Source: a virus
DNA length: 64,000 bases
Strand: one strand, 5' to 3'
Virus record (IMG/VR): IMGVR_UViG_3300045988_145683
Coordinates: 1-64,000 of that record
Under the pieces are notes generated by a model. The model searched no databases and was not told the origin of the DNA. It worked only from the letters and a program-made list of their open reading frames with translations. Every line of letters starts with the position of its first letter. The first letter of the stretch is position 1. The position numbers were made by a program, and so were the translations under genes. This document shows, in pieces, positions 1-64,000 of this stretch.

Positions 1-35
1 ATATATATATAAGGTTAAGAAAGGAATTGATAAAA

Positions 36-227
36 ATGAATGATTATGATGATATTTCTTGGGCAGTTGCGAGTGTAGCTTTTATGTTCATTGAAGTAGC
101 TATTATGTTATTTATTTGGAATACCGCTCTTATTCCTTGGTTTTGCTTTCCAAGCATTACTTATTGGCAAATGTTTGTCATTAAGATTTTTATTAATATT
201 GCGGTTCCTTCTCGCTCAAAGGAGTAA
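36..227 (+). CDS. small hydrophobic (2-TM) hypothetical protein
   Basis: Track ORF 27..227. ATG at 36 follows a purine-rich RBS. Hydrophobic segments. TAA stop. Confidence 0.35.
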   Translation: MNDYDDISWAVASVAFMFIEVAIMLFIWNTALIPWFCFPSITYWQMFVIKIFINIAVPSRSKE

Positions 228-232
228 TTCAA

Positions 233-493
233 ATGGCATCTTATGAAAATCATGATTTTTACTGTATGAATTGTGGACGAAAAGGAATCCCTTTGTCTCG
301 TCGAGTAAGTCTTCAACATGGTAAATTTCATCGTAAAAAACTGTATTGTATTTATTGCAAAGAAGAAGTAAATCATATCGAATGTAGAACTCCAGAAGAA
401 GTAGAAGAGTTTAAAGAAAATTTTGAGAATGGGGTGTATAAAGATGAAGCAAAAGAATCTTTGGATTATGTCCGGGGTTCCAGGCTCGGGTAA
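233..493 (+). CDS. zinc-ribbon hypothetical protein
   Basis: Track ORF. Two CxxC pairs (CMNCG...CIYCK). TAA stop. Confidence 0.4.
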   Translation: MASYENHDFYCMNCGRKGIPLSRRVSLQHGKFHRKKLYCIYCKEEVNHIECRTPEEVEEFKENFENGVYKDEAKESLDYVRGSRLG

Positions 494-956
494 ATCTACT
501 TGGCTTAAAAATCGTTGGCCTCAGTGCGGTTGTGTTGTTTCTCGTGATGCTCTTCGTTTTCAAATGTTAAATGATGATGAAAGCTATTTCGCCAAAGAAG
601 AAAGCGTATGGCATGCTTTTGTTGAAGCAATTACTCTTTCTTTAAGAGACTATGATGATGTGTATGCAGATGCCACGCATCTTGGACCCGGTTCTCGCAA
701 GAAACTTCTCAAAGCAATTAACGCAAAAGGATATGCAAATCTTAATGTGAATGTTATTTATTTTAATGTTCCTGTTGAAGTTTGCATTGAGCGCAATAAA
801 CAGCGTGATGGTCGAGCGCAAGTTCCAGAAGAAGTAATTCGGAGTATGGCAAATTCTTTTACTCCTCCCACTTTTAAAGAATATATTAAATATAACCTTA
901 TCCAAGAGGTCAATGAAAAAGGAGAAGTGATTCATACATGGCAATCTCATGTCTAA
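444..956 (+). CDS. P-loop kinase (AAA_33 / polynucleotide-kinase-like ATPase)
   Basis: Track ORF 423..956. Walker A SGVPGSGKST. Probable ATG start at 444. TAA stop. Confidence 0.6.
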   Translation: MKQKNLWIMSGVPGSGKSTWLKNRWPQCGCVVSRDALRFQMLNDDESYFAKEESVWHAFVEAITLSLRDYDDVYADATHLGPGSRKKLLKAINAKGYANLNVNVIYFNVPVEVCIERNKQRDGRAQVPEEVIRSMANSFTPPTFKEYIKYNLIQEVNEKGEVIHTWQSHV

Positions 957-1024
957 ATTGTGGGTCAAGAAGTGTTAATTTTATTAATTATTTTCTCATT
1001 AATATATGAAGGAGTGATTAATAA

Positions 1025-1765
1025 ATGAATGTTGTATATAAAATTACTAATTAGACTAATAAAAAATCTTATATAGGCTCAAGTACTCGTGTTGAAACTA
1101 GATGGAAATAGCACATTAATAATGCTTTTAATCTAAATAATTCAAATTATTTTTATCCTTTATAGTGTGCTATTAGAAAATATGGAGTAGAAAATTTTAC
1201 TTTTGAAATTTTAAGAAATGATTTTAATGATGTTAATTCGATGGAAACTTATGAGCATCAAATGATTTTAAAATATAATTCTTTATGTCCTAATGGATAT
1301 AATTAGACTGAAAATACTAAATCTAATATTATCGCTCTTGAGAATACTCAAAAGCATATAAAAAAAATTAGTAAAAAATGTGCTTTAGTAAATGAATAGA
1401 ATGAAATTATTTCTATTTATAGTTCTTATCATGAAGCTGCAAGAGCTCAAGGGTGGGATGGCGATAAAAGAGCTACGACAATAAAAAAAATATGTGATGG
1501 AGAAGCTCATAGTTGTAATAATTTAATTTTTCGATCATTGGATGAAAATAATAATGTTATAATTCCAAAAGCAAAAACTCGAAAAAGACGTACCAAAATA
1601 AAAGGAATTAATATAAATAACCCAAATGATATTGTTTACTATGATAGTATTAGCGAAGCTGCTCGAAAAGAAAAAGTAGATCGAAGTAGTTTAAGTAAAT
1701 GTCTCGCTGGATCAAGTAGATATAGCAAAGTTGGTGGACGAAAATGGGAAAGGATAGGTGATTAA
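1025..1765 (+). CDS. free-standing GIY-YIG homing endonuclease (I-TevI-like), 5 in-frame TAG codons
   Basis: ATG at 1025. Reading TAG as Gln gives MNVVYKITN-Q-TNKKSYIGSS...RWK-Q-H...AIRKYGVENFTFEIL. The C-terminal NUMOD/HTH-like tail DSISEAARK...SSLSKCLAG corresponds to track ORF 1538..1765. TAA stop. Confidence 0.75.
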
Positions 1766-1768
1766 AAT

Positions 1769-2336
1769 ATGGGTGCTATCTTTTTAACAAGTGATATGCA
1801 CTTTGGTTAGCCATGACCGTGAATTTATTTGGAAAGCTCGTGGTTATTCTTCAATTAAAGAAATGAATGAAGATTACGTCGAGAAATGGAATAGCATCAT
1901 TTCTGATGAAGATGACGTTTATATTCTTGGTGATCTAATGCTTGGAGAACCTTCTAATATTGAATATATTAAACGTCTTAAGGGCAAATTCCATATTGTA
2001 TTTGGCAACCATGATACAGCAACTCGGCAGAAGCTTTACGCGGACTTGCCTAATGTTGTTGAAATGAACTGGGCGATTATGCTAAATTATCGTAAATACC
2101 ATTTCTTTATGACCCATTTCCCTTGTATGACTGGTAATCTTGAAAGAGAAAATCTTCATCAAATGACTTTAAATCTCTATGGTCATACTCATCAAACCAC
2201 TAATTTCTTTGAAGATCGACCTTATATGTATCATGTAGGTGTTGACTCTCATCATGGCTATCCCATTAATCTTGATGTAATCATTGATGCTATGAAAGCT
2301 AAAGTTGAGGAATGTAAATCATTTCTTGATGAATGA
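1769..2336 (+). CDS. calcineurin-like metallophosphoesterase; needs a +1 frameshift at GGT TAG C (about 1805-1811)
   Basis: ATG 1769 opens MGAIFLTSDMHFG (D-x-H motif I) in frame A. That frame then reads TAG CCA TGA. Motifs GDLM and GNHD are in the +1 frame (track ORF 1791..2336, GTG start). Total length is 3n+1. Confidence 0.55.
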
Positions 2337-4935: not shown

Positions 4936-6198
4936 ATGATGAGTACGAAGATGTATAAATTTTATGATACTTGTAGTTTGCTGATGGCGGTTGACACATT
5001 TCTCCAAGAGGAAGAATATACACCGGTTATATCTTCTATTACTTTAAAAGAATTAGAAAATATAAAAACATCATCAAACAAAGATGCTGATATTAAATAC
5101 TCAGCTCGTAAAGTATTACATAAATTAAATGAAAACCCTGATGATTATATTATCCAACTATTTAAATTAGATGGATTAAAAATAATTGAAGATTCTAACC
5201 TTCCAATTACTGATGATAGTAAAATTTTATCTACGGCTATTGAATTTAAATTAGCTCATCCAAACACTATATTCATTACTAATGATTTATCATTAAAAGC
5301 AATGGCGAATCTTTTCTTTGATAAAAATCATATTCAAAGTATAGATGAAGAATTAATTGATGAATATAAAGGATATGTGGAAATCACAATGTCCGACACG
5401 GAAATGGCTGATTTTTATTCTAATCAGTATGAAAATATTTATAGTTTACATATTAATGAATATTTAATTATAAGAGACAAAGATAATAATATTGTTGATA
5501 AAGTATGTTATACAGGCGATGGATATCGACCCATATCATTTGGTAATTTTGACTCTACTCAATTTGGAAAAGTAAAACCAATGAAAGATGACCCATATCA
5601 AGCCTTATTCGCGGATAGTCTTATTAACAATACTATTACTATGGTTCGTGGCCCCGCAGGGTCAGGTAAAACTTATTTAAGCTTAGCTTTTTTAATGAAT
5701 CAATTCGAGCGTGAACGTATTGATAAAATTATTGTATTTTGTAATACAATCGCGACTAAAAATTCAGCAAAATTAGGTTTTTATCCTGGCACTCGTGATG
5801 AAAAATTACTTGATAGCCAGATCGGCAATCTTTTAATTAGTAAATTTGGTGGTCGCTTAGCTGTTGAACGCATGATTGAAAATGAACAATTAGTTCTTTT
5901 ACCATTAAGTGATATCCGTGGTTATGATACTACTGGAATGAAAGCGGGTATTTATATTTCTGAAGCACAAAATATGGATATTTCGCTTATGAAATTGACT
6001 TTACAACGTATCGGTGAAGATGGTATTTGTATCATTGATGGCGATGATAAAACTCAAGTTGATGATATCGCTTTTGCTGGAGCCAATAATGGTATGCGTC
6101 GTGCTTCTAAAGTATTTAGAGGATCAGATGTATATGGTGAAATTGAATTAAAACAAATTCATCGTTCTAAAATTGCGGCATTAGCTGAACATATGTAA
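4936..6198 (+). CDS. phoH: PhoH-like ATPase with N-terminal PIN domain (PhoH2-type)
   Basis: N-terminal PIN-like acidic motifs (FYDTCSLL). Walker A GPAGSGKT and a PhoH core. No TAG codons. Confidence 0.75.
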   Translation: MMSTKMYKFYDTCSLLMAVDTFLQEEEYTPVISSITLKELENIKTSSNKDADIKYSARKVLHKLNENPDDYIIQLFKLDGLKIIEDSNLPITDDSKILSTAIEFKLAHPNTIFITNDLSLKAMANLFFDKNHIQSIDEELIDEYKGYVEITMSDTEMADFYSNQYENIYSLHINEYLIIRDKDNNIVDKVCYTGDGYRPISFGNFDSTQFGKVKPMKDDPYQALFADSLINNTITMVRGPAGSGKTYLSLAFLMNQFERERIDKIIVFCNTIATKNSAKLGFYPGTRDEKLLDSQIGNLLISKFGGRLAVERMIENEQLVLLPLSDIRGYDTTGMKAGIYISEAQNMDISLMKLTLQRIGEDGICIIDGDDKTQVDDIAFAGANNGMRRASKVFRGSDVYGEIELKQIHRSKIAALAEHM

Positions 6199-6202
6199 TT
6201 AT

Positions 6203-6245
6203 AAGAAAGAGAAGATTTACTTCTTCTCTTTCTTTTTTATTTTGT
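6203..6245 (+). terminator. rho-independent terminator
   Basis: Hairpin AAGAAAGAGAAG...CTTCTTCTCTTTCTT followed by a T-run. Confidence 0.55.
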
Positions 6246-6260
6246 GGAAAGGAGGATAAT

Positions 6261-7562
6261 ATGACTAATATTGAAATAACTTGGAATTATTTATATAAAC
6301 AAATAAAAAACCCTTATGGAACGGCCGGGCTAATGGGAAACTTAAAAGCTGAATCAAATTTTAATCCAAAAAATCTTCAAAATAGTTTTGAAAAGACACT
6401 TGGATTAAATGACGAATAGTATACAAAACAAGTAGATAATGGTAAATATACTAATTTTATTTATGATAAAGCTGGATATGGTTTAGCTCAATGGACTTAT
6501 TGGAGTCTTAAAAAACAATTATATGATTTTACAAAAAAGAAAAATACTTCAATAGGAAACTTAAATACACAACTTGAATTTTTAATTTATCAACTTTCTA
6601 CATATTATCCTACCGTTTGGAATACTTTAATAAATTGTAAAGATATATAGACTGCTTCAAATATAGTTTTAACATAGTTTGAACGACCAAAAGATTAGAG
6701 TTTAAAAATCCAATAGTAGAGATTATATTATGGAGTTGAAATATATGATCAATTTATAGAAAAAGGTGAAAATATGAAAATTGTAGATAATTTAACAACA
6801 TCTAATTATCAAAAAGGTAATAATAGAAAAATAAAATATATTGTAATACATTATTTTGGTTCTTTAGGGACTGCAAAAAATATTAGTAATTATTTCAAAA
6901 ATCCTGTCGCTAAATCATCAGCTCATTATTGTGTTGATGAAAAAGATATTATTTATCGTAGTGTTAAAGATGAAGATATTGCTTGGCACTGTGGCACAAG
7001 AAAAGGATATAAACATCCTGAATGTAGAAATGCCAATTCTATTGGAATTGAAGTAAGACCTTGTAAAATAAATAAATCTAATATTGTAGCCAGTGATACT
7101 GATTGGTATTTTGATCCAAAAGCATTAGAAAATACGATACAATTAGTAAAACAATTAATGTAGAAATACAATATACCTGCGGACCACGTTATTCGCCACT
7201 ATGATGTAACTGGTAAATTATGCCCTCGTCCATTATGCGGAACTGACATGAATAGTTATTATAGAACAAGTGGCGATTACCAATGGTAGTTATTTAAACA
7301 AAAAATTGGTGATAATATAAATATTAATGAGGAGGATGAAGATATGACTTAGGATAAATTTAATGAGATGATGGAAGTTTATTTAAATCAACAAGCCGAA
7401 AAAAATGCAAGTTCTTGGTCTGATACGGAAAGAACTTGGGCTGAAAGTAAAGGATATATTAAAGGCGATAATTTAAATCGTAAAATGTATAAAAAATTTA
7501 TGACTCGTGAAGAAATGATTGTAGTTCTTTATAGAATTATGAAAGATAAAGGGTTGGTGTAA
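6261..7562 (+). CDS. modular peptidoglycan hydrolase / endolysin: tail-lysozyme-like domain + Amidase_2 + SLH-like C-terminal domain; 9 in-frame TAG codons
   Basis: Track ORFs 6774..7163 and 7368..7562 and the upstream segment from ATG 6261 are all in one frame. They are separated only by TAG codons (about 6415, 6648, 6676, 6700, 6718, 6721, 7162, 7279, 7348). Domain 1 has G(L/M)GNLKAES...GLAQW. Domain 2 is an amidase_2/PGRP-like fold (IVIHYFGS..., HYCVDE, GIEV). The C-terminus WAESKGYIKGD...MTREEMIVVLYR fits an SLH consensus. Confidence 0.75.
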
Positions 7563-15775: not shown

Positions 15776-15782
15776 AGTATTT

Positions 15783-16796
15783 ATGCTTACTTTAATAATT
15801 GCTATACTGGCGTTTATTATTGGTGGATTTTTAATATATTTTATTTTACGTCCACGACTAAATAATATTCAAAAGCTCAATGAAGAAATAGTAAAACAAA
15901 ATAAAGAGCTTGAATCTAAAAATTCAGATTTAGATGATTAGTATACAATATTATCAACGGCAGTAAAAAGTATTACTTCCAGAAAAGAAGAAGTAGAAAA
16001 TAATTTAAATATTCTTTAGTCCAAAAGAGACGAAGTTGAAAATAGTTTAAATTCTTTATAGAATCAGGCAAAGCAATCAGCGGACATTTTCTATCAGCAA
16101 TCAATGGAAAATGCTCGTGTTCGTCTTGAATATGATTTAAATAAACAAGAATTTAAATATACAAAAGCTAAAGAAGAATATGAAAATGAATATCAATCAA
16201 CTCTTGTTGATTGTTCTTTAGAATTATCTAATTTAATTAATTCTAAAAAAGAAGAATTAAATAAATTAGATGAAGAAATTCAATTACATAGTAGAGAAGT
16301 TGCGGCCGCAGTTGATGCTGCGAAACGTGCCGAAGAAATTAAAAATCAAGCTGATTTCTATAAATTATAGTTGTCTCAAATAGATATTGATGAAATCAGT
16401 CTTCTTCGTTCTATTGAACCAAGACTTCGTGATAAAGATATTTTAAATAAAGTAATTTGGAAAAGCTATTATGAAAAACCAACTACAGATTTGATTGGTC
16501 GAGTAATTGGCTCTGGAGTCCATACAGGGATTTATAAAATTACTAATTTAGAAAATCAAATGTGTTATGTGGGTCAAGCAGTCGATCTTTCTGCGCGTTG
16601 GAAACAGCACATTAAACGCGGAATTGGTGCGGAACCCGCCACGCGCAATAAACTTTATCCTGCTATGTTGGCTATTGGAGTAGAAAATTTTAGTTTTGAA
16701 GTAATAGAAGAATGTTCTCGTAAAGAGTTAGATGTGCGAGAAGATTACTGGCAAGACTATTTTAAAGCTAAGGAATTTGGGTATAGTATAAAATAA
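15783..16796 (+). CDS. membrane-anchored coiled-coil protein fused to a C-terminal GIY-YIG nuclease domain; 4 in-frame TAG codons
   Basis: ATG 15783 (MLTLIIAILAFIIGGFLIYFIL, a TM helix) is in frame with track ORFs 16104..16370 and 16371..16796. They are separated only by TAG codons (about 15951, 16017, 16047, 16368). The C-terminus has GIYKITNLENQMCYVGQAVDLSARWKQH...GVENFSFEVIEE. Confidence 0.6.
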
Positions 16797-20398: not shown

Positions 20399-20959
20399 AT
20401 ACATAAAGTTAAATGTATTTATTGTCAGCAGACTTTTGATAGAGATAAGTTTCCTTATGTTCAAATAAAATCTCGAAGATATGCGCACCCTGAATGTGCT
20501 AAATAGGCTGAAAATGAAGACACTCCTTTACAAGTTCATAATCCGCCTGAAAAAGTAAAAACAAAAGAAGATTTAGATAAAGAAAAATTTGAAGAATATG
20601 TAAAAAATTTATTGGGAGAATCATATATTAATGCTCGCGTCCGCAAGCAAATGAATGATTATATCAGAGAATATCAATATACATATTCTGGAATGTTAAA
20701 AGCCTTAGTTTATTTTTATGAGGTTAAAGGAAATAATAAAAATAAAGCTAATGGTGGAATTGGTATTATACCTTTTATTTATAAAGACGCTTACAATTAT
20801 TATTATAATCTTTGGATGATTCAACAATCCAATAAAGATAAAAATGTTATTGATTACGTTCCTAAATTAAAGGAAATAAAAATTCCTATTCCTAAAAAAG
20901 AACCTCGAAAAAGATCAGTTTTTACATTTTTAGATGAATAGGAGGACTTAAATGCCGAG
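20399..20959 (+). CDS. hypothetical protein with N-terminal zinc ribbon; start codon uncertain (no ATG); 2 in-frame TAG codons
   Basis: Track ORF 20612..20941 extends in frame upstream through coding-like sequence CIYCQQTFDRDKFPYVQIKSRRYAHPEC. An AAAGGAG RBS sits at about 20384. Its terminal codon 20939 is TAG, and read-through reaches TAA 20957-20959. Confidence 0.3.
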
Positions 20960-22484
20960 TAAATATGTAGACCCAACAGCGATTACACAAGTTATAGGGT
21001 GTGTATATAATACTCCTTAGCTTTTGGATTTTACTGATAGATATACAATAACTGATGAAGATTTTGCTGATGAATTTCATAGAATTGTTTTTGGAGCAAT
21101 ATATAAAATTCATGAATTAGGAGCTTAGAAAATTACTTTAGAAAATATTAGTGATTTTCTTTCTTCTCGACCTAAATATGAAGCCACATTTAAAGTTAAT
21201 AAAGGTGAAGAATGGTTATTGAAAGTTTCTGAAAATGCGAAACCTTTGTCATTTGATTATTATTATGGTCGTTTAAAAAAAATGTCTCTACTTCGTGCTT
21301 ATGACAGATATGGCATTGATGTTTCTTTTATTTATGATCCTGATAATATTTTAGATACTGAAAAAAAACAATTACAAGAAGATAATCTTGATAATTCTTC
21401 ATTAGAGCATATCGCACAATTAATTGATGACCGTATAGAACAAATTAAATATGAGTATGTAAATGATGTTGAAGGAGTTGCAGTTCAAGCAGGTGATGGA
21501 ATTTTTGAATTGCTTGATGATTTAGAGCAACATCCAATAGCAGGAAGTCCTCTATATGGGCCATTAATTAATACAGTTACTCGTGGAGCAAGACTTAAAA
21601 AGTTTTATTTGCGCTCCGCGGCCACCGGTGTAGGTAAAACTCGTTCTATGATTGCGGATTCGTGCTATATTGCTTGTAATAAAATATATGATGATACTTT
21701 TGGAAGTTGGATTAAAAACGGAATTCAAGAACCAGTATTATATATAACTACAGAGCAAGATAAAAATGAAATTCAAACAATGATGCTTGCTTTTCTTTCT
21801 AATGTAAATGAAGAGCATATTATTTATAATGAATATCAAGGAAATGAAAAAGAACGAGTAATAGAAGCTGCAAAAATTCTTAAAGATAGTCCATTGTATA
21901 TTCGTGAATTACCTGATTTTTCATTACAAGATGTCGAAAATGAAATCAAAAAAGGCATCCGAGATCACGATGTAAAATATATCTTCCATGACTATATTCA
22001 TACAAGTATGAAAATTCTTGAAGAAATTACTCGTCGTAGTGGCGGAGTAAAACTTCGTGAAGATAATATACTTTTTATGCTATCTAACAAATTAAAAGAT
22101 ATCTGTAATCAGTATGGTGTTTTTATTATGTCAGCAACACAGTTAAACGGTGATTATGTTGATTCTAAAACCCCTGACCAGAATCTTTTGCGTGGAGCAA
22201 AATCTATTGCCGATAAAGTAGATTATGGATCAATTCTTTTAAATGTCCAAGATGATGATTTAATTTCATTGGAAAAAATACTAAACACAAAATTATTTGA
22301 TACTCCAACTATTAAAATGTCTGTTTATAAAAATAGGCGTGGTAGATATAAAGGAGTTATTTTATGGTGTAAGGCAGATTTAGGAACTTGTAGAATTATT
22401 CCTATGTTTTGTACTACATATGCTTATGAACTTGTTCCTATTGATGATATAAAAATTACTCTTGAAGAAGAGTCAGCTTTTTAA
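20952..22484 (+). CDS. dnaB: replicative DNA helicase (DnaB-like), 2 in-frame TAG codons
   Basis: ATG 20952 follows a TAGGAGGA RBS and is in frame with track ORF 21219..22484 through TAG codons at about 21018 and 21126. DnaB N-terminal domain, Walker A GVGKTRSM and a RecA-like C-terminus. Confidence 0.8.
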
Positions 22485-35561: not shown

Positions 35562-35635
35562 TTATTTACTAACAAAATCTAAATATAGTAGAATATTCTA
35601 AAAGAACTACTATATTTAGTTTGGAGGCAAAAAAA

Positions 35636-36879
35636 TTGTATATTATTAAACGTGATGGAAGTATAACTCAATTTAATAAAAAGAAAATTATTAACGCAAT
35701 AAATAAAGCATTTATTGAAGTTGATGGTAAACTATATGAAGATGATACTGCGAAAGATATTGCGGAAGACATTGAAAGACAAATAAATCATTTCCCCGAT
35801 GGAAGTGTTGGAGTAGAAGATCTTCAAGATTGGATTGAAGATTATTTAATGCGTTCTGAGCGACGTGATGTTGCTCGTGCTTATATCAGATATAGATATA
35901 AAAAAGAAGTTGCTCGTAATAAAAAAGATGATTTTATTAAAGCAATTCGTGAAAAGCTCGATGGTAATAATGTAAAAAATCAAAATGCTAATGTTGATGA
36001 ACATTCATTCGGCGGTCGCACTGGTGAAGCAAGTAGTGTTGTTACCAAACAACTTGCGCTTGATTATTTACTTTCACCTATGGCTCGTAAGAATCATATT
36101 GATAATATTATTTATACTCACGATCTTGATTCTTATTATGTTGGTTCTCATAATTGTTTAAGTATTCCCTTTGATAATTTACTCGCCAATGGATTTAATA
36201 CTCGTCAAGCTGATGTTCGTCCTGCGGGCTCAATTAATACAGCATTTCAATTAATCGCTGTTATTTTCCAAATTCAAAGCCTTTGTCAATTTGGTGGAGT
36301 TAGCGCCACTCATTTAGATTGGACTATGGTTCCTTATGTAAGAAAATCTTTCTTTAAACATTTCAATGATGGTATTGAGTTTTTATATGAAGGATTAGAT
36401 ATGAACAAATATGATGGCTGCTATAGTAAAGAAACTTCTATTGAAGATGATTTTTATAAATCATTTCCAAAAGCATATAAATATGCTATGAAAATGACTG
36501 TCCGTGAAACTCATCAAGCTGCGGAAGGTCTTTATCATAATCTTAATACTTTACAATCTCGTAGTGGAAATCAATTACCATTTACAAGTATTAATTATGG
36601 TACTTGTACTAAACTAGAAGGTAGAATGGTAACTAAAGCATTATTAGATGTTTCTATTGAAGGTCTTGGTAAACTTCATAAAACTTCGATTTTCCCTTGC
36701 GGAATTTTCCAATGTATGAAAGGTGTTAATCGCAAACCTGGTGATCCTAATTATGATTTATATAGATTAGCATTAGAAAGCACCGCGAGACGCCTTTATC
36801 CTAATTACGCAAATGTTGATTGGTCTGGTAATGCAGGATATGATATTAATGATCCTCGCACTTATTTTTCTACAATGGG
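35636..36879 (+). CDS. nrdD: anaerobic ribonucleoside-triphosphate reductase NrdD, exon 1 (ATP-cone + core)
   Basis: GGAGG RBS then TTG 35636 (track start 35621). N-terminal ATP-cone (IIKRDGSITQFNKKKI). Exon 1 probably ends ...YFSTMG at about 36879. The exon continues into a TGA at 36911, consistent with an intron. Confidence 0.7.
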
Positions 36880-37730
36880 TAAGCGTAAACTCAGCCCATT
36901 TAAAATCTTTTGAACTGCGCCCGCAGGTGTCTCTATGAAGAGGCTAACGGTTAGGTCTTAATATAATTAGCTGTAATATTAAGATGAGACCGTGCTAAGA
37001 TTCATCATAATATTCATATAAAGGAGGTGCCCTTAATGTGGATATATAAAATAATAAATATTCAAAATAATAAAGTATATATTGGTTAGTCGATTAGACC
37101 AATTAATCAAAGATTCCAAAGACATATAAATGATGCTCTTAATAATATTCTCGATACTCATTTTGCTAGAGCAATAAGAAAATATGGTAAAAAAAATTTT
37201 ATTATAGAAGAAATTGATACAGCCAATACTCAAGAAGAATTAAATGAAAAAGAGCAATATTGGATTAAATATTATGATTCAGTAACAAATGGTTATAATG
37301 AAACAGATGCCATTTCTAAGTGTGGTGGAAATACTTACCAATCTAAAACTGAAAAAGAAATGGAAATTATTAAAGACAAAATTCGACAAACTAAAATAGG
37401 AAGTAAAAATCCTATGGCTAAAAAAATAAAAAGAATAAATATTCTTACTAATGAAGTAGATATTTTTGATACTATTATTAGTTGTGCTAAAGCTTGTGGA
37501 ATTTAGAATGGTAAAACTTCTATTACAGATAGATTAAATGGTAAAATTAAAAGTCCATTTAAAAATACTTGGAAATTTGAATATTATGATGAATAAAGTG
37601 TATCGACTATCCCTGATGAATGTAAGGGAGTAGACTTGGAGATAGGCACCAAGTCGAAGCGGAAGACAACTCTATCTTATAGATAGAATGATAATATAGT
37701 CAGTGCCGATGGTGACATCGGGTAAACATG
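36880..37730 (+). other. group I intron in nrdD with embedded homing endonuclease ORF
   Basis: The NrdD reading frame breaks between ...STMG and CRTANGWDINGF... Internal guide GCCCAT about 12 nt into the insert pairs with exon ATGGGT (U.G at the splice site). The insert ends in G. An RBS+ORF lies in a loop. Compare the T4 nrdD (sunY) intron. Confidence 0.55.
37036..37596 (+). CDS. intron-encoded GIY-YIG homing endonuclease, 2 in-frame TAG codons
   Basis: AAGGAGG RBS. MWIYKIINIQNNKVYIG-Q-SIRPINQRFQRH, with TAG at the invariant Gln (37087). Second TAG at 37504, inside a C-terminal HTH-like tail parallel to the 1025 enzyme. 3' boundary uncertain by about 1 codon. Confidence 0.65.
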
Positions 37731-38741
37731 TGTAGAACTGCAAATGGTTGGGATATTAATGGATTCGGTCAACTTAAAGATGGACGTGGAAATATTTGTC
37801 CTGTTACTATTATTCTTCCTACTCTTGCGATGATGGCCGTTACTCTAAATGAAAATGATAATTGGGATGACTATAAGTCATTATCCCAAGAAGAACGGAC
37901 TAAAATTGGTGTAGAACGATTTATGTCTTTACTCGATAGAAAAATCAATGAAGCACGTATTCAATTAATGGAACGTTTTGAATGGATTTGTTCTCAAGAC
38001 CCAGGCTCCGCGAGATTTATGTATGAAAATAATGTTATGGCAGGTTATGTTCCAGAAGAAGGAATTCGTTCCGCTCTTAAGCACGGAACTCTTGCTATTG
38101 GTCAGTTAGGTTTGGCTGAAACTCTTCAAATTCTTATTGGTAAAGATCATACCACTTCAGAAGGAATGGAATTAGCTAAACGAATTGAACAATTATTTAA
38201 AGATAGATGCGCCGAGTATAAAGAAAAATATAAACTAAATTTTGGAGTTTATTATACGCCCGCAGAAAATCTTTGCTATACTGCTATGACAAAGTTTAAA
38301 GAAAGATACGGCGAAATTCCTAATGTTAGTGATAAAGAGTTTTTTACCAATAGTATTCACGTTCCAGTATGGAAAGAAATGAGTCCATTTGAAAAAATTG
38401 AAATTGAATCTGAATTAACTGGTTATTCCTCCGCAGGATGTATTACCTATGTCGAACTTGATTCTACTGTAAAACATAATATTGATGCTCTTGAAACTAT
38501 TGTCAATTATGCGATGGATCACGATATTCCTTATTTCGCAGTAAACGTTCCTAATGATACTTGCCTTGAATGTGGTTATTGTGATGAATTTAATGATTCT
38601 TGTCCTGAGTGCGGAAGCCACAATATTCAGCAATTGCGTCGTGTGACTGGTTATCTTACAGGCAATTATAAAACTGCTTTTAATTGGGGTAAACAAAAAG
38701 AAGTTGAAGCAAGAGTAAAACATACAGGAGCATTAGAATGA
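37731..38741 (+). CDS. nrdD: NrdD exon 2 (glycyl-radical and zinc-ribbon C-terminal region)
   Basis: Track ORF 37728..38741. CLECGYCDEF...CPECGS zinc ribbon and an RRVTGYLTG glycyl-radical-like motif. TGA stop. Confidence 0.7.
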   Translation, partial: CRTANGWDINGFGQLKDGRGNICPVTIILPTLAMMAVTLNENDNWDDYKSLSQEERTKIGVERFMSLLDRKINEARIQLMERFEWICSQDPGSARFMYENNVMAGYVPEEGIRSALKHGTLAIGQLGLAETLQILIGKDHTTSEGMELAKRIEQLFKDRCAEYKEKYKLNFGVYYTPAENLCYTAMTKFKERYGEIPNVSDKEFFTNSIHVPVWKEMSPFEKIEIESELTGYSSAGCITYVELDSTVKHNIDALETIVNYAMDHDIPYFAVNVPNDTCLECGYCDEFNDSCPECGSHNIQQLRRVTGYLTGNYKTAFNWGKQKEVEARVKHTGALE

Positions 38742-48487: not shown

Positions 48488-51400
48488 TCACTTTACAATA
48501 GGTTCTTCTTCAAAGTTTGCTCTATTAGATATCATTGCTTCATAAATTCTATGTAAAGTATTCTTAACACTTTCACCATAACTAGCAACATAATAATATC
48601 TAAAACGACCTGTATATCCATTAGCGACAGTAGGCATACCTGTTTGACGAGGGGTAAAAATATTACCAGAACTATCTACCGTAATCTATTTAATTGGATG
48701 TTTATTAGTGCCAATCTATACTTGAATAGCACCAGTATAACCCTTAAACTAATTACCAGACATATTTAAAATTGTCTAACCAGAGAACGCATTTACATCA
48801 AAGTTAAGAATACCATCTTTACATCCCTCTATAATTAAATTATAAGGAGAATAAGACCCCATCTTACTTTGATAGAATGCTTGAGCTCCAAAAGTCAAAC
48901 CTTCCGTAGAAGAAGAATAAGGAATTATATTATTACGACTTAAAGGACATTGATAAAATGCCTTAATGCCAATTTTCTTTAGACAATCACTAAATTGGAA
49001 ATATTCTAATCCACTATCTAAAATAAAGGCATAATCATCTATTACAGAAATTTTATTACTATCTTTTGGAGCAAAGAATATAGCAGTAATATTAGGATTT
49101 ACTTGAATACCAATTGCTGCTGATGGGTTAACTTGGCTATATTTAATTCTCGTAATTGGCTAACCATTATAAGTTGTAGGTAAAGTAATTTTGCCTTTTA
49201 AATTCTTAGCTAAGTCAGTCATTGCAAATGATAATTCTCCATCAGAATTTATAATATCATAATATTTATGAGTAGCATCATTAGTTAAAATATTATCATA
49301 AACACTAATTGGTTCTCCAACGGCATAAAACTCACGATCGGCATAAGCTAATTGTTTAGTTAAATCAATTTTAACTCCATCTTTATCCGCCCATCCAGTC
49401 TGTCTCCAAGTCCACTCTAATGGGTCTTCACCTTTTGGTAAATCAGTTACTTCTGCATTATTAAAATAATAAAATTCTTCTGGAACAGTAATTCTTTCAC
49501 CATAATTAAATACTTTTTTTACAGTTGAATCATTAATAACACGGTCACCATTGACAAAAGTGATTGTATAAGATTTGCGTTCAAATCTTGCTTTAAAAAC
49601 ATAATCTATTTTATTAGGTTGTAAAGACAAAGAATTCCAATTATTTTTTAAGACGACATCTTCTTCGTTTACATTTTTCCCAACAGTAATTACCAATTCT
49701 CCCGTATCGTCTTCCCAGCCTTTAAAATCATAAGTTGGCATTTTTTCTTGTAAACTACCAAAAGAAATATAAGTTTCACTAGAAAGAATAGTTGGATCAT
49801 CAAAAAACTTATCACTAGATGAAGACAATTTCTAAGTTTTTAAAACTTCCTAAACTATTACTCCATCGACGTCTTCTTTTTCTAAAATAAATTTAGCAGA
49901 ACATTCTTGTTTAACATTTTCTACAAAAATTATTAAATTAGGATATTTATTCTATAACTCATTTTGAATAACTGATTCATCAATTTGATTATTATTTTTT
50001 ATATATATAACACCAGATATTTCTGGTTTATTGGTATTAAGACCTCTATAATTATTATAAACATCAATTAACAAATTATAATCAGTTATTATATTATGTT
50101 CTTCATTATCTCCATTTATTGTATCTAAATAATAAATCTAATTATTTTTAATATCAGATTTTGTTATTTTACTAACCTAATCTTTTGAAATACTTGTTAA
50201 CTAAAAATGTCCGTTATCTCTATAATAAGATTTTTTTTCTGGATCAAGAGCTGTTTTAGTATCAGTTAAAAGTCTATAGGGGCTCCATTGAATATTGCTT
50301 AAATTAATAATACAATTAGATAAATCTAATTTACTATTTTCACTAGCTGAAACATATTTACGCAATAATTTATAACTATTATATCCTAAATTGCCACCTC
50401 GAATATCAAAAGTTTTTATCTCGGTTTTTTCTTGACCTTCAATAGCATCAGTAAGACCCTAAATATATAAACCACGATTTTCATCTAAAATTTCAAGTTT
50501 TCCAGTAGTTGAATTTTTTTCAGGATATACATAATTAGTTATTAATTTCGTTAATAAATTAGCTTCTATTAAACTTAAATAATTTGTTCGATTGGTTAAA
50601 TATAAAGTATTTAAAGCTACTCCAGGAGCAAAATTAACTCTTGGAATATTAGATTTAGTATTTCTAAAGTTTTCAAGCTTTTCGCTCTTAGTTAAATCTA
50701 ATGCTCCTTGGTCTTTTTTAAAGTTAATATTGCAAAGATTCATTTCTTTAAGTAAAGGCATTCCGCCTTTTGAGAAAGACCAATCGTTTACATCATTATT
50801 AAAATATTCATTACCACTTTCATCTTTCCCGTCATACCCTAATAACAAATCAGTTAAACGCTCCATTTTTCCTTCAGCAGCAAATTCTTGGAAATATAAT
50901 TTACTTAAATCACCGAGAGATTTCATTTGATCCATTCCATAAATATAATATAATTGTTCTTTATAATTACCGCTACTTATAATTCCTTTTTTAATATCAG
51001 GAGCTACATATTTAACTGGTTCTAAACCATTATATTTCTTTGAAGGAAAATTCTCTCCATCTGTACCAATAGTAACATAGGCATTGCGCGCGGGCTCCAT
51101 ACTAATCCAATATTCGCCATCAAACATATGATTTTTTTCTTCAAATTCAGCATTATTTTTCCAATATTGAGAATTTGTAATTAATCCATCCATATTCTAA
51201 GTATTAGTGCCTTCAATCCATTTATCAGATGTATTTTTAGGATTATTTGCAGAAATACGGCTTCTAATATAACTTCCTCCACCATTTCTGGCATAAGTAC
51301 CAACAGTTAACCAAGAGTCAATATAATTAAGACGATTGGCTAAAAATTGCGCACGATAAAGATTTCTATCTCCTTGTAAAGCATAAAAATATTTATCATC

Positions 51401-54400
51401 TTCAACCTCATATGACCCTCCGTCAGTTAAGCGACCAAACACTGGCATATTTTCAGCTTTAGAATTTGTTGGAATAATATACTTAAATTCTTCATCTAAA
51501 CTTAAAGCAATAATTGGTCGATCTCCCAAAGCAGCGTAGCTATCAAGAAATACTGATGGATCAGTACGATACCATTTATCTACAATATCACTTTTTTTAG
51601 CCCCGCTTCCGGCTCCTTTAGTAAAAATTTTATTTACTCTTGAATCATTTGGGCTATAAGAATTATTTTGAGTTCCCATTAATTGCTTATACTTATCCAC
51701 CATCTTACTTCTAAAGAAAGTGTAAAAATTATTCCAAAGAACACTATCGTTAGTTGAAAAACTTCCTTCTTCAGTAGCATCAATATAGTATTCAAAAGAT
51801 GGAATACCAGTATTATTAATACCTAATTGAGTATCAATATCATAAAAGATAGGATACCAAACATAATGTTGTTTGCCAGTAGATTTTTGAACATTGCCTT
51901 TTTGAGGCCCCCAAGAAGCAAACATTGCATTTTTTCCACGAGAATCATAACATTCAAAAATTTCTGTCATTAAAAGGTAAGAAGCTAAATATTCAATATC
52001 AAAGAAATTACTTAATTCATTTTTAAATTTAGCTTGACGGTATTCTTTACTATCTTTAGTATAAGTAATAGAGCCATAGGTTACTGGGTTAGGTAATTTC
52101 CATCTTTCCTCAATACCTTCTTCATTTTTATTAAAAGAATAATAATCTAAAGAAGAATTAAATTTATCAGAACTTAATACATAAATTTCATTTTTACTAT
52201 CAGTTAAAAGATAATAAATATTTGCTTTATATACTTTATCTGAATTATTTGTAAGTTTTATGCTTACATACTTTAAACTATTATTTTCATTAATCTACTT
52301 ATAATATCTTGTTTCAGAGTTATATTCTTCAGAAGCTAATTTATAAATAATTTTTCCATTTTCATTAACTCCATCTTCAACATAATAGACATTAGGAGCA
52401 TATATGGCTTCAGCTAATCCATCAACTTTAGTATAAACGCCCATAGATGGAATTTTTAATGTCTATCCATCATCAAATTCAATATCGCAATCTAAACAAG
52501 TACTCCATACCCAACTAACTGCGTCTTCCCAGTTAGACATTAAAGCTAAGAGCAATTCTTGTTTACTTGTATCATTAGCAACATTAAATTCTATTTCTTC
52601 TCCATCTGGATTCTTTATAATCCATTTAATAGATTTTACACCAGTAATTTCATCAACTATTTCTTTTTTAGTAAGTCTATCTGGGGCTACATTTTTTAAT
52701 TCTTCCTCAACAATCTTAGTCTATGTCCCATCTGGATCAAGCCATTCTTTTAAACTAAATAAATTATCAGCAATTAAATCATCATTTGGATTATATCTAG
52801 GCTCAAAAGAATCAATAACTTTTGGCGCACCTTTAATTAATTCAGGATTATCTCCGTCTGGAGGTATTACCATATTAGGATTTCTAAATGATAATTTATA
52901 ACGATTCCAAGGATCACGGAAAGAACAGAAAGTTCTTGAATTGTTCTAAAATTCCCAACATTCTGCTATATCTCTTACTTTAGGATTGCCCGTAATTTGA
53001 TTTTGTAAAATCTCTTTATTTGGTTTAAATCCAAAACATTCATCTGATCCTTTATCTAATAACATATTATATTTGCCAATAAAAATACAGTTATTACTAT
53101 TTTCCTTAGAGTAAGTATTATCATCGTTGGACATATAGTGGAAAGCTAAGACGGGGAATCCTTTTACCGAAGTGCGATAATCTTCTAAATTTCCATATAA
53201 ATTATAATTATCAAAAGAATCTTTATAGTCTTCTACTGGATGTTTAGAATAAATCTCGTTAACTAAATTAGCAAATCCTCTATTATAATCTCCAGAAGAT
53301 TCCATAAAATCTATCTTTAAAGTAAATTTAGTAGTACCAACTGTCTTATTATCCATATAAAACCATTCTAAATAGCAAGGATGTTTAGTTATATCTTCAT
53401 TATACTAATCTCCTGCTTTTTTATATTCTTCAGCAAATGGACCTCTATTTAAAAGCATTGATTCTTTGCATTTAGCTTTATAGTTACGACGAGGATAAAA
53501 TTGTGAAGAAGTGCCTTGAACTTGGAAAGTACACCCATTAAGAACAGTTATAAAACTAGGGCAATGATGTATATAATAATTCTATACAGCAGTATATTTT
53601 ATTATTTCTAACCCCGTCTCTTTATTTTTTTCAATTACAGGTTTCCATCCTTCTTTTATAGCAACTTTTTCTAATTCGCCACTATTATAAGCAGCATCTA
53701 AAGCCGTATTAACAAATTCTAAAGTTCCTTCCTAACTTCCTTTTGCTTTAGAATAAGGTAGTCTATTATCTGTGTTGTTTTTATTATTTTTAGTAGTTCT
53801 TAAAATAATATAAGGCATTAAAGGATCAGTAGGGTGATTATCATTATACTTTTTCATTTTAGTATAAGAGAATACATCGTCTTTTAATACCATATTGTTC
53901 TCATAAAGGTCTTTTTGATCCCATTGTTTTATACTTCTTTTATCAAAAGCATAATTTTGGACTATTTCAGGAATGGTTAAATCTGTATCATAAACTCTAA
54001 TACTATAAATATCAATATCACAAGTATTAGACATAAATTTAATGAAATCAGAATCAATATTCCAAACATCACTACTACAACGTACAACACTAGTTAAAAC
54101 GCCATTCATAAAAATTTCTAATAATTTAGAATTTCCGCCTTCTATATCACTTTTCTTTTTAGTATAAACAAATGAAAGATTTAACATTTCATTTTCAATA
54201 AAATCAACTGAAACTGTCTCTTGAGCGCCATTAGCCGTAAATACAGCATCCTATGGACTAAAATAAATACCAGGAGAAACAGAGCTTCCTAATTTACCAT
54301 ATGCACAGACTAAATTCTTTAAATTAAAATCTTGTTCTATTTTATTATACTCTAAATCATCATAGCTATAATTAGTTGTCGGTAAATATTCTTTAGTTAA

Positions 54401-56233
54401 AAACTCATCATAATTAAGATATTTATTTTGAGCTTTAAATTTATCCCAAGCATCATCATCTTCCCAATTATCTCTACTTACTTTATATCTAGTATATTTA
54501 GTTATAACTTTAGCATAATTTTGAGGATTCTTTATTTTAAATTGAATCTCAATAGTAGCAGATGATGATCCATCTTTAAAAGCCATTTTTCCGACTGGGA
54601 TAGATACTTCAGCACCATTGCTTACTCGTAAACAAGTCGTATTATTTTCATCAAAAACCCAACCATTATTATACCAATTAAAATTTTTAAATTCTACATA
54701 TTTATTATTATTAATTAAATAAGTTTCACGGCCTAATTTTCCCTCTGAATTAGAACGACCAGTAGCTATAAAATTAACTTTTAAATTATCTTTTTTTGCT
54801 AATTTCATATCTCTTAAAGGATCAATCAAAATTGTAAAATTAAAATTACGAGAATAAGAATAAGGATCAGTACCAACTTTAATAGTATAATAAGAACTAT
54901 CATCTACAGTTAAATTAGTAATTTCCCAATATTGCCATTCTCTAACTTGTGAACTATCTAATTCTCTAGTTCCTACTTGGACGCCATTCTTATAAAGAAT
55001 TATAAAAGCTCCATTATTATTTGGGTCTAATACTTTAAAAGGAATTCTTATTGTCTCATAAGTATAATATTCTGTCTTAAAATCTTGCACCCAAATTAAA
55101 GGCATTTTATTGCCTGGTTCTTGAATAACAATTTCCTTTTGAATAAAATCTGTTCCCGCGCCTTTTTTAGAATTATTCATTAAATACAACTTTGCTTTTA
55201 TTATATGCTCACCATGAGTAAAATAATTTTTTAAAGTAGAAACTTTGTCAACCCCTAATATATTTGTATCAGGAGTAATAACAAAAGAATCTTCAGAAGA
55301 AGAATCAGTATCACTATAAGTTCTATCTAAAACTAAATAATCATCAAAATAAACTTCAACAGATCTGGCGATATCTTCAGACATTAACCAACTAACAGAT
55401 ATTTGTTCATTATCAATTGGACTATCATTACTAAAACTACTTTCTTTCCAATTAAAAGAAAGATGATGTTTATTAATATTAATAGTATCAGAGCTTTTCT
55501 AAAATCTATTATTTTCTTTATCAGGATTATAATAAATACTAAAATTAATTTCACTAGAACATGAATTTCTTAAAATATTAGTTAAATCAATTTCTTGCGG
55601 AATATTGTGCTCATAAGTAGTAGGAGGAGAAGTATAATAAATTTCTTTTTCTGTAGCACTTTTAATTTCGCTTATAGTTATAATTCCTTGCACAGAAGAA
55701 GATTGCGGAACGCCACCAACAGTTCTACATTTAACCAAAACTTTTACTTTAACATTTTCTTCATTTAAGATATCAACAGGGCTGTCAGATGGAATTCTTG
55801 TTAAAGAAACAGTTCCTAAAACTTTTTGTTCAGAGTCTCCTTCTCCGCCACCGCCTGCCCCAGCGACAGTTAATTTTTCACATCTCGCACATTCTTCGCG
55901 GTTTTCATTTAAAGCAAAACCTAAAATTCGATAAAAACATCCGTCTAAATTTAAAATTAAATCATCTATATGACAATTTGTTATAGATAATTTTGATAAA
56001 AGAATTAAATAAGCCACTGGGTTTTCATCCGCATCATATTCAATTTCCACAGTATTATCTGTACCGTAAATTACCTGAACACCACTAGACCCTATTGGCA
56101 TTTTATTTTCAGTTGCCGTATCTAAATAAACTCGGCCTGTATCTGTTGCCACATAAAAATATCCATCGCTTTGAGGATATTCTTTTATTTTTTCTTCTGG
56201 GCCCTATACAGGACGAAAACGTATCTTAGACAT
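48488..56233 (-). CDS. giant virion structural protein (about 2580 aa; tail fibre / adhesin-like), more than 20 in-frame TAG codons
   Basis: GAAAGGAG RBS then ATG 56233. Track ORFs 55499..56152, 54251..55384, 53732..54187, 52946..53356, 51197..51970, 50459..51193 and 49160..49828 are all in one frame and all end in TAG. The gap 51971-52945 was checked codon by codon and holds only TAGs (52295, 52463, 52721). The first non-TAG stop is TGA 48488. Composition is beta-rich, N/T/S/Y-rich. Confidence 0.6.
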
Positions 56234-56252
56234 AATTTACTCCTTTCTATCC

Positions 56253-63620: not shown

Positions 63621-64000
63621 AATCCTCTACCGCCTTTCTTAAAGTGTCAATAAATAAAGTATATGTTTCATCAACTGTCTTTTGTAATCCTGCTACTTTA
63701 TTATTATAATTTTTTATACAAGTCTAAATATTATTCTAATTCACATTATAGAATGGATCATCTTTAGTGAAATCAGGATTACTTTTATCTTGTTCTAATT
63801 CTTTAAAATCTTTTAAGGCCTTCTTAGCTCTTAACCAATTTTGCTTTAATTGATAAATTGTGGTTGTAATATAATTCTAACCATTAAAAATTCTATAAGT
63901 AGTTTGATTATCATTTTCAAAAGAATAAACTACTTCTTGACGTTGGACTGATAATTCGCATAAAACACCTGGATCGACTTCAATAGAAGTAATATCAGTT
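63598..64000 (-). CDS. partial structural gene (C-terminal part; N-terminus beyond the window)
   Basis: Open minus-strand frame from the window edge down to TGA 63598, overlapping the start of the next gene. Confidence 0.35.

Follow-up and report, generated by a model that had tools for sequence, protein, structure and literature searches.

How an enzyme whose metal-binding residues are encoded in two different reading frames could be made as a single polypeptide is the question raised by a gene on a 64,000-nucleotide (nt) stretch of phage DNA (positions 1 to 64,000 of IMG/VR record IMGVR_UViG_3300045988_145683, hereafter the window). The gene encodes a metallophosphoesterase (MPE), and its beginning reads ATG GGT GCT ATC TTT TTA ACA AGT GAT ATG CAC TTT GGT TAG CCA TGA (1769-1816). 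The frame that opens at 1769 contains metal-binding motif I (SDMHFG), and HDREF...GDLMLG...GNHD...GHTH follows in the +1 frame. All the metal-binding motifs of the enzyme (D-x-H; GD; GNH[D/E]; H; GH-x-H) are thus there, split over two frames (1769-1807 and 1812-2336), so that a single polypeptide carrying them requires non-triplet decoding. On this point we agree with the original prediction, which was made from the letters of the window and which further proposed that ribosomes skip one base at GGT TAG C by a +1 shift beside a stop-type triplet, with sequencing error as a possible cause of the break. Comparison with relatives leaves very little doubt that the break is a real and heritable insertion linked to a neighbouring homing endonuclease (HEG).

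The joined protein is a calcineurin-like metallophosphoesterase by its family profiles, with matches to Pfam PF12850 (E = 7.7e-11, 42.7 bits for a cutoff of 27, residues 6-146), Pfam PF00149 (26.1 bits, cutoff 21.5) and PHROG 547 (E = 2e-41, residues 1-183). A protein search with it found 1448 relatives, and the nearest intact ones are 95% identical; the part encoded in the second frame is 95-98% identical to intact and gapped relatives. Since homologues align on both sides of the break, and the PF12850 and PHROG 547 matches begin at residues 6 and 1, the motif I segment is part of the enzyme, as had been predicted. Among the best 120 relatives, all 114 intact N-termini read D-x-H-x-G-H-[DN], with Gly and His adjacent (HFG-HDREF type), and the DNA of endonuclease-free relatives runs CAC TT(C/T) GG(G/A) CAT GAT across the site. 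Because of this adjacency in 114/114 intact homologues, the insertion amounts to 4 nt and not to one base. Its placement is ambiguous, TAGC at 1808-1811 being equivalent to TTAG at 1807-1810 and to GTTA at 1806-1809; in the first of these, TAG is the next 0-frame codon after GGT, and AGC (1809-1811) would be a near-cognate landing codon. The proposal that the two frames are joined by skipping one base therefore gave the correct net shift for the window (+1) and the wrong size for the lesion.

Could the insertion be an indel introduced into this contig by sequencing or assembly error? What speaks for this is no more than the prior expectation for a lone frameshift in a metagenomic contig. The same insertion is found in 14 other loci of the window lineage, which share an identical GGTTAGCCATGAC, come from different samples and assemblers and are otherwise 96-97% identical to the window, with single-nucleotide polymorphisms elsewhere (L001, L011/L059, L054 and L090-L099; two of these identifiers denote one IMG/VR contig). 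Six more lineages have related insertions of 4, 5 or 7 nt. Since independent assemblies share the insertion, we reject sequencing error, which has next to no chance of being the cause, and the frame break at GGT TAG C can be taken as heritable. The protein cluster formed by the truncated open reading frame (ORF) has 68 members, with at least 10 distinct full-length variants on >50 contigs of up to 383 kb. The longest of these, L092 (ERZ28569113 scaffold_3), carries a window-type allele and may be a concatemer or a mis-assembly, other relatives measuring 110-197 kb. Cluster members of 75-85 residues were considered as signs of decay and rejected, as they are truncated by contig ends; the exception, L078, has a complete gene with a recoded TAG and no HEG. 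An intron or known RNA element at the site was rejected, an Rfam scan of the window having returned nothing. A DNA-level search of GenBank phages found no relative of the window, a pattern search of GTDB genomes for the host gave chance matches only, and we found no description of this locus in the literature.

Assemblies from IMG/VR, JGI, ENA and Logan were the source of the insertion-bearing loci. Motif I is missing from six of the best 120 protein matches; five of them were traced to DNA and, together with pattern scans, led to further loci. The resulting set comprises 29 insertion-bearing loci from seven diverged lineages and many independent assemblies, and the MPE bodies of the gapped lineages other than that of the window are 50-72% identical to the window protein. 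The TAGC form occurs with the HEG present in L082 and with the HEG absent in L029 (= L081) and L031, and TAGT is found beside the HEG in L032 (= L100 = L101, from three samples). A 5-nt insertion, TAGGT, accompanies the HEG in L033, L034 (= L044), L048 and L056 and places the remainder of the gene in the +2 frame; the resulting arrangement GGT TAG GT CAT was read at six loci. Finally, L030, a single contig, has TAAAGGC (7 nt) next to a 330-nt remnant of the HEG. The comparison with related phages, suggested as a check in the original prediction, thus upheld a shared break and a retained motif I, with a lesion of 4, 5 or 7 nt instead of 1. As a separate observation, the MPEs of L029, L081, L082 and L032 have a Cys-rich C-terminal extension of ~60-80 residues, ending ...RDPPDGG(F/Y)YG, which the window MPE lacks.

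The original prediction had overlooked a freestanding GIY-YIG endonuclease cassette that ends 27-30 nt before the gap and with which the gap is inherited (Table 1). HEG-less loci align to window positions 1-947 and pick up again at ~1743-1749; in them, the gene for an AAA_33/KTI12-like kinase overlaps the MPE start by 16 nt. The endonuclease matches PF01541 (GIY-YIG) with E = 3e-8 and PHROG homing endonuclease families with E values down to 6e-26, and NUMOD1 and I-HmuI_NUMOD-like matches fall below cutoff; it has the make-up of a GIY-YIG catalytic domain followed by a C-terminal DNA-binding module. A diverged duplicate of the kinase 3' end at 1742-1771 supplies the displaced MPE gene with a new ribosome-binding site and ATG, and the same layout is seen in other lineages. 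A CNNNG motif (CTTTG, 1801-1805) lies 20-24 nt from the cassette junction; in its triplet spacing and its distance it presumably resembles the I-TevI target.

Table 1. Features of the MPE locus in the window
Feature	Positions	Strand	Remarks
MPE reading frame 1	1769-1807	+	13 codons, MGAIFLTSDMHFG; metal-binding motif I (D-x-H); last codon GGT
Coding gap, four inserted bases TAGC	1808-1811	+	Compared with intact alleles GG(G/A) CAT GAT; variants TAGT, TAGGT and TAAAGGC at the same site
MPE reading frame 2	1812-2336	+	His14 (CAT) to stop at 2334-2336; 174 codons; motifs GD, GNHD, GHTH
0-frame TGA	1814-1816	+	Would terminate MGAIFLTSDMHFG-Q-P if TAG = Gln and no re-phasing takes place
Putative take-off context, 20 nt, AGTGATATGCACTTTGGTTA	1790-1809	+	Near-invariant, synonymous sites included, in all seven gapped lineages
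Homing-endonuclease cassette	948-1781	+	Missing from 34 HEG-less relatives; boundaries ambiguous within shared ATCT
GIY-YIG homing endonuclease (HEG) ORF	1025-1765	+	246 codons; freestanding; PF01541 and PHROG families
Diverged duplicate (22/30 bases) of kinase 3' end, ribosome-binding region and MPE start at 912-941	1742-1771	+	Local alignment
AAA_33/KTI12-like kinase gene, left flank of cassette	444-956	+	Pfam PF13671, E = 9e-23; final codons from 948 supplied by the cassette

The association between the endonuclease and the gap is nearly complete. Both are found together in 26 loci and both are missing from 34, no locus combines the HEG with an intact MPE gene, and two have the gap and lack the HEG (three with L031, whose flank is too short for it to enter the linkage test). 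With loci as the units, which are not mutually independent, Fisher's test yields p = 1.8e-15; counted by lineage, a hand calculation gives p ~0.016. The three IMG/VR loci with this HEG family (3/3) all adjoin a gapped MPE gene, and HEG-less gapped strains recur in independent samples. Thus, in 26/26 HEG-bearing loci a collinear ORF carries an insertion whose length is not a multiple of three and which is linked to a homing endonuclease. The cassette itself behaves as expected of a homing endonuclease, being polymorphic for presence (26 loci) and absence (34 loci) at one fixed kinase/MPE junction and showing co-conversion of its flank. In sliding-window comparisons of L033 with L034, identity is 87-97% in the HEG and 45-75% in the flanks; between the window and L011, it is 99-100% in the cassette and 93-97% in the flanks. 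The conserved stretch consists of the HEG and ~50-100 nt downstream, gap included, with both flanks much less conserved, and conservation of the gap above that of its surroundings points to co-conversion during homing. Two assembly features concern the HEG: the contigs of L032, L100 and L101, identical and from three samples, all begin at the same base inside it, and the first 503 nt of L001 are inverted relative to the window, with the breakpoint within it. Assemblies seem to break or mis-join there, perhaps because HEG-bearing and HEG-less genomes coexist in samples.

Next to the gap, we find a nucleotide-level conservation that exceeds what the protein requires in intact alleles. The HEG lineages are old and functional, with ~70% nucleotide identity, synonymous divergence (dS) of 0.84-1.16 and a ratio of non-synonymous to synonymous divergence (dN/dS) of 0.2-0.3. 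Over this distance, a 23-nt block AGTGAT(CTC/ATG)CACTTTGGTTA (AGTGATCTCCACTTTGGTTA plus the preceding three bases) matches at 23/23 positions among five lineages and at 21/23 in the window. Among intact alleles, eight different codon strings encode the residues of this block, with Gly specified by GGG or GGA in each and by GGT in none; the exact 17-nt take-off context beside an uninterrupted His codon has no instance in IMG/VR. In every gapped lineage a ribosome-binding site and the ATG are kept, and the frame stays open for 13-14 codons up to a terminal TSD(L/M)HFG. Equally constant are GGT, the TAG or TAA that immediately follows, and the RGY triplet preceding CAY; what varies is the gap interior (4, 5 or 7 nt) and upstream codons 2-7. 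As the HEG-gap segment should be inherited with the cassette, a dead segment would be expected to have been randomised over that time. Both reading frames are intact in all 29 gapped loci, including the one with a HEG remnant (L030) and those that lost the HEG (L029 = L081, L031), and no second lesion was seen in the gapped alleles inspected.

These variants bear directly on the +1 frameshift that the original prediction had proposed for GGU UAG C, that is, a programmed event of the RF2 'shifty stop' type that would give HFG-S-HDREF or HFG-Q-HDREF and sense termination or suppressor activity. With RF2 (prfB) the site shares a U-ending sense codon abutting a stop triplet followed by C and, in the window allele, the need for a net +1. 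The 7-nt form also requires a net +1, TAG or TAA follows GGT in every lineage, and, read in the +1 frame, the change of TAGC to TAGT in L032 leaves Ser unaltered. However, six sister loci with the 5-nt insertion need +2, and these alleles lead us to reject a +1 shift as a general rule. Slippage from GGU to GUU would, by base-pairing rules, leave tRNA-Gly without re-pairing, and no Shine-Dalgarno-like sequence is found 3 nt upstream, nor any in ATGCACTTT. Moreover, with an insertion of 4 nt, a +1 shift would add Ser or Gln within the G-H pair that is invariant in 114/114 homologues, so that the product would be non-collinear. The site therefore differs from RF2 in all these respects, and we regard a frameshift of this type as quite unlikely, the more so with TAG being a sense codon in this phage. 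For the 4-nt form of the window alone, a +1 shift giving HFG-S-H stays a mechanistic alternative.

The genetic code of the phage is code 15, with TAG read as Gln. In-frame TAGs number 23 in the 2583 codons of ORF 48488-56236, 10 in ORF 61314-63638, 9 in a lysozyme/amidase ORF (6189-7562) and 2 in a DnaB-like helicase (20952-22484), and sense use of TAG covers the minus-strand region 41900-64000 and scattered plus-strand genes. It extends to the MPE family. In the HEG-less, ungapped MPE gene of L078 (1823-2383), a TAG stands at a conserved Gln (TATR*KLYADL compared with TATRQKLYADL), and gene callers split the gene into ORFs of 84 and 85 residues; the gapped L032 allele has a TAG just before the conserved C-terminal extension. 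TAG is thus not simply a stop in this phage. UAG may still decode slowly, and the 'shifty stop' logic is weaker given its sense use. Neither a suppressor tRNA nor any other tRNA was found within the 64-kb window. The endonuclease gene itself contains five in-frame TAG codons (1052, 1109, 1163, 1304 and 1397), which are read as sense. The HEG of L082 (470-1210) also has five, mostly at positions different from those in the window lineage, and the 67%-identical HEGs of the 5-nt lineages (L033/L034) have none. Recoding has been proposed to delay the synthesis of another recoded phage endonuclease (bioRxiv 10.1101/2021.08.26.457843), and by analogy the TAG pattern of this HEG fits a delay in endonuclease synthesis.

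We also considered that the downstream part may be expressed alone from an internal start (GTG 1791, TTG 1803 or ATG 1861) as a shortened, non-catalytic protein. This corresponds to current annotation, as gene callers give the MPE as an ORF of 157 or 181 residues from such starts in dozens of gut-phage contigs. Asp and His of motif I would be missing from such a product, neither GTG 1791 nor TTG 1803 has a ribosome-binding site in front of it, and in the 5-nt lineages a TGA closes the needed frame just upstream, with no start codon before the His. Internal initiation would also leave the conserved upstream 13-codon frame unexplained. Because of the missing motif I and the missing start codon in the 5-nt lineages, it was rejected and appears very unlikely.

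The reading that we favour, tentatively and with somewhat less than even confidence, is that the endonuclease and the gap form a mobile cassette like that of T4 mobA/gene 60 and that the gap is decoded by ribosome hopping into an active enzyme. The cassette comprises a freestanding GIY-YIG HEG inserted between the kinase and MPE genes, with the gap belonging to it or tightly linked with it. As its distance of 27-30 nt from the junction may suggest, the gap would lie at or beside the cleavage site of the endonuclease and would shield the carrier genome from its own enzyme. During translation, peptidyl-tRNA-Gly would detach from GGU with a slowly decoded TAG or TAA in the A site and land 4, 5 or 7 nt downstream on an RGY triplet just 5' of the His codon. 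The landing codon would be GGU in the 5-nt form, GGC in the 7-nt form and the near-cognate AGC or AGU in the 4-nt form, and translation would restart at CAY to give the wild-type HFG-HDREF. The 5-nt form, GGU-UA-GGU, would formally be a +5 hop. One hop model could account for all gap forms, whereas a +1 shift would be adequate for gaps of 4 and 7 nt and not for the 5-nt form. Unshifted ribosomes in the window would end at the TGA listed in Table 1, after Q-P, and the non-recoded product would be MGAIFLTSDMHFGQP.

T4 mobA/gene 60 is the closest known system. In both cases a freestanding homing endonuclease lies just upstream of the interrupted gene, and a non-coding insertion that is thought to block cleavage of the carrier is co-inherited with it. 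Both have, at a take-off site that is putative here, a Gly codon followed by UAG; a landing codon, also putative here, that matches it fully or nearly and immediately precedes the codon of resumption; a conserved take-off context with a variable gap interior; and a decoded protein (here predicted) that is collinear with uninterrupted homologues. In our loci, the putative take-off and landing sites are GGT followed by TAG or TAA in every case, and GGT (5-nt), GGC (7-nt) or the near-cognate AGC/AGT (4-nt, window included), respectively. The differences are also clear. The gap of gene 60 measures 50 nt (20 nt in one Aeromonas clade) and ours 4-7 nt, the take-off codon is GGA there and GGU here, and the interrupted gene encodes a topoisomerase there and a metallophosphoesterase here. 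The endonuclease is of the GIY-YIG class here, unlike MobA, which is an HNH endonuclease. TAG is a sense codon in the present phage, in which bypassing is putative. At our site, where take-off comes after 13-14 residues, we detected no take-off stem-loop, nascent-peptide signal or mini-Shine-Dalgarno, nor any homology to the stimulatory signals of gene 60. To our knowledge, T4 gene 60 was for decades the sole phage case in which ribosomes pass over an insertion that a homing endonuclease has left behind, and only homologous copies have been added since then.

Several properties of gene 60 are relevant to a short gap. Its gap protects against MobA and moves with it, re-pairing in the P site is not strictly monitored, and a stop or slow A-site codon after the take-off codon aids take-off (bioRxiv 10.1101/2022.08.31.505936; PMC5009743). 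Within the element, the take-off context is conserved and the gap interior is variable (bioRxiv 10.1101/2022.08.31.505936). The same combination of a frozen take-off context and a variable gap is what we find, and simple inactivation of the MPE would not predict it. Synthetic stop-hops and +5/+6 forward hops have been obtained in E. coli (Weiss et al. 1987, as cited in PMC5009743), and a review notes no known use of hops this short in nature (PMC5009743). Those constructs are engineered and of low efficiency, whereas the present arrangement is natural and conserved in several lineages.

Simple inactivation is the alternative to be weighed most closely. The HEG would then have created or brought in the insertion, as a repair scar or as a mutation for immunity, no MPE would be produced from gapped alleles, and these would persist through homing drive, with the enzyme dispensable or backed up by the second, upstream metallophosphoesterase of relatives. 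We judge this possible, if on the doubtful side. It is the simplest reading of an insertion that is not a multiple of three, gapped alleles account for a minority of ~5 among the 120 best protein clusters, another PF00149 protein is encoded nearby in relatives (L002 34-753, L081 1438-2139), no recoding stimulator was detected, and TAG is sense in this phage. This explanation leaves unaccounted for the 20-23 nt frozen at synonymous sites while the HEG has a dS of ~1 and the gap interior and neighbouring codons vary. It likewise does not explain why the ribosome-binding site, the ATG and an intact motif I frame are retained in every lineage, why gapped alleles remain free of further lesions, including those whose HEG is decayed or gone (L030, L029/L081, L031), or why HEG-less gapped strains turn up repeatedly in independent samples. 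Synonymous changes would have provided immunity free of cost, yet it is a frame-breaking insertion that has persisted.

Selection on the protein does not decide between these two explanations. The MPE is strongly constrained, with dN/dS of 0.03-0.11 among intact alleles, 0.04-0.13 in the MPE body within lineages and 0.07 between L029 and L082, both gapped. However, the cassette is young relative to MPE diversity. Between the window and L011, dS is 0.00 in the HEG and 0.13 in the MPE gene, between L033 and L056 it is 0.089 and 0.23, respectively, and gapped alleles form no clade in the MPE body. Since the cassette is younger than its MPE backgrounds and enters lineages that were already diverse, intact ORFs and low dN/dS were possibly inherited from genes that had been intact until recently, as would suit inactivation, and we rejected dN/dS as proof of function after insertion because it is confounded. 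A test based on private mutations is without power for the same reason.

Other observations weigh against bypassing as well. In the 4-nt form of the window, the landing triplet AGC is only near-cognate, and the 7-nt form is known from a single contig. We found neither a shared stimulatory RNA structure (fold z-scores of -0.9, -2.9, -0.5 and +0.7, not significant) nor a Shine-Dalgarno-like element at the site. As TAG is a sense codon in the phage, the MPE bodies of relatives included, the A-site codon may simply be read to give G-Q-P-stop. Short unassisted hops in E. coli are inefficient (~1%, from literature cited in PMC5009743). Lastly, the protein product, the cleavage site and the immunity role are each predicted from the arrangement of the DNA.

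Two further groups of known elements help to place the locus. Freestanding GIY-YIG endonucleases of T-even phages (Seg, I-TevI-like) also combine a GIY-YIG domain with a NUMOD-type DNA-binding domain, are intergenic insertions polymorphic among close relatives, show co-conversion of flanks and presumably cut ~25 nt from their insertion point, as I-TevI does. In known cases, polymorphism of the target site or its disruption by the inserted element provides the immunity; a micro-insertion that breaks the frame of a neighbouring gene is not known to do so there. The byps of Magnusiomyces capitatus mitochondria and the saviour indels are likewise short inserts in coding sequences that are corrected in translation (PMC5009743). 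According to the saviour-indel idea (PMC5009743), an indel can break the frame and still be useful, with enough product supplied by re-phasing at a low level; this fits an immunity insertion. In contrast to the present gap, byps are 27-55 nt long, mitochondrial and associated with an unassigned A-site codon, and saviour indels are located in homopolymer runs (PMC5009743). The locus is best regarded as a variant of the type of cassette that combines an endonuclease with a coding gap.

A bolder form of the bypass reading holds that the GGU-UAG/UAA micro-gap is a natural, selected stop-hop and the second independent family of HEG-borne bypass elements, reduced to 4-7 nt, with MPE synthesis coupled to the switch to code 15. 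The A-site triplet being the reassigned codon, hop efficiency would follow the speed of UAG decoding; the MPE would be on before a suppressor tRNA accumulates and off afterwards, or the reverse, and the same gap would give immunity at the DNA level. We consider this combination unlikely.

Elsewhere in the window, inspection of ORF junctions and a coding-score scan did not find the other frameshift site that the original prediction had reported and from which, as one of two such sites, it had argued for a mechanism. What it referred to may be the gene for NrdD, the anaerobic ribonucleotide reductase, which is divided between ORFs 35621-36913 and 37728-38741, in different frames, with the break exactly at Pfam profile position 265/264. 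Between the NrdD halves (35621-38741) lies another GIY-YIG HEG with two in-frame TAGs (36988-37596), and the split represents either a group I intron undetected by Rfam or a gene divided by a freestanding endonuclease. ORF 15777-16796, with four TAGs, combines an N-terminal transmembrane and coiled-coil region with a C-terminal GIY-YIG-like domain (...YKITNLENQMCYVGQ...GVENFSFEVIEEC...) and does not look like a typical homing endonuclease.

If the gap is not decoded, a selfish element has repeatedly knocked out a strongly conserved phage enzyme, with an unexplained constraint on the nucleotides beside the lesion. If it is decoded, the locus would be an independent case with a different gene, a different class of endonuclease and a minimal gap, and the first natural use of very short stop-hops, which have so far been synthetic only. 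The natural 4-, 5- and 7-nt variants constitute a ready-made mutational series. In that event, an endonuclease accompanied by a bypassed immunity insertion would represent a recurring evolutionary solution.

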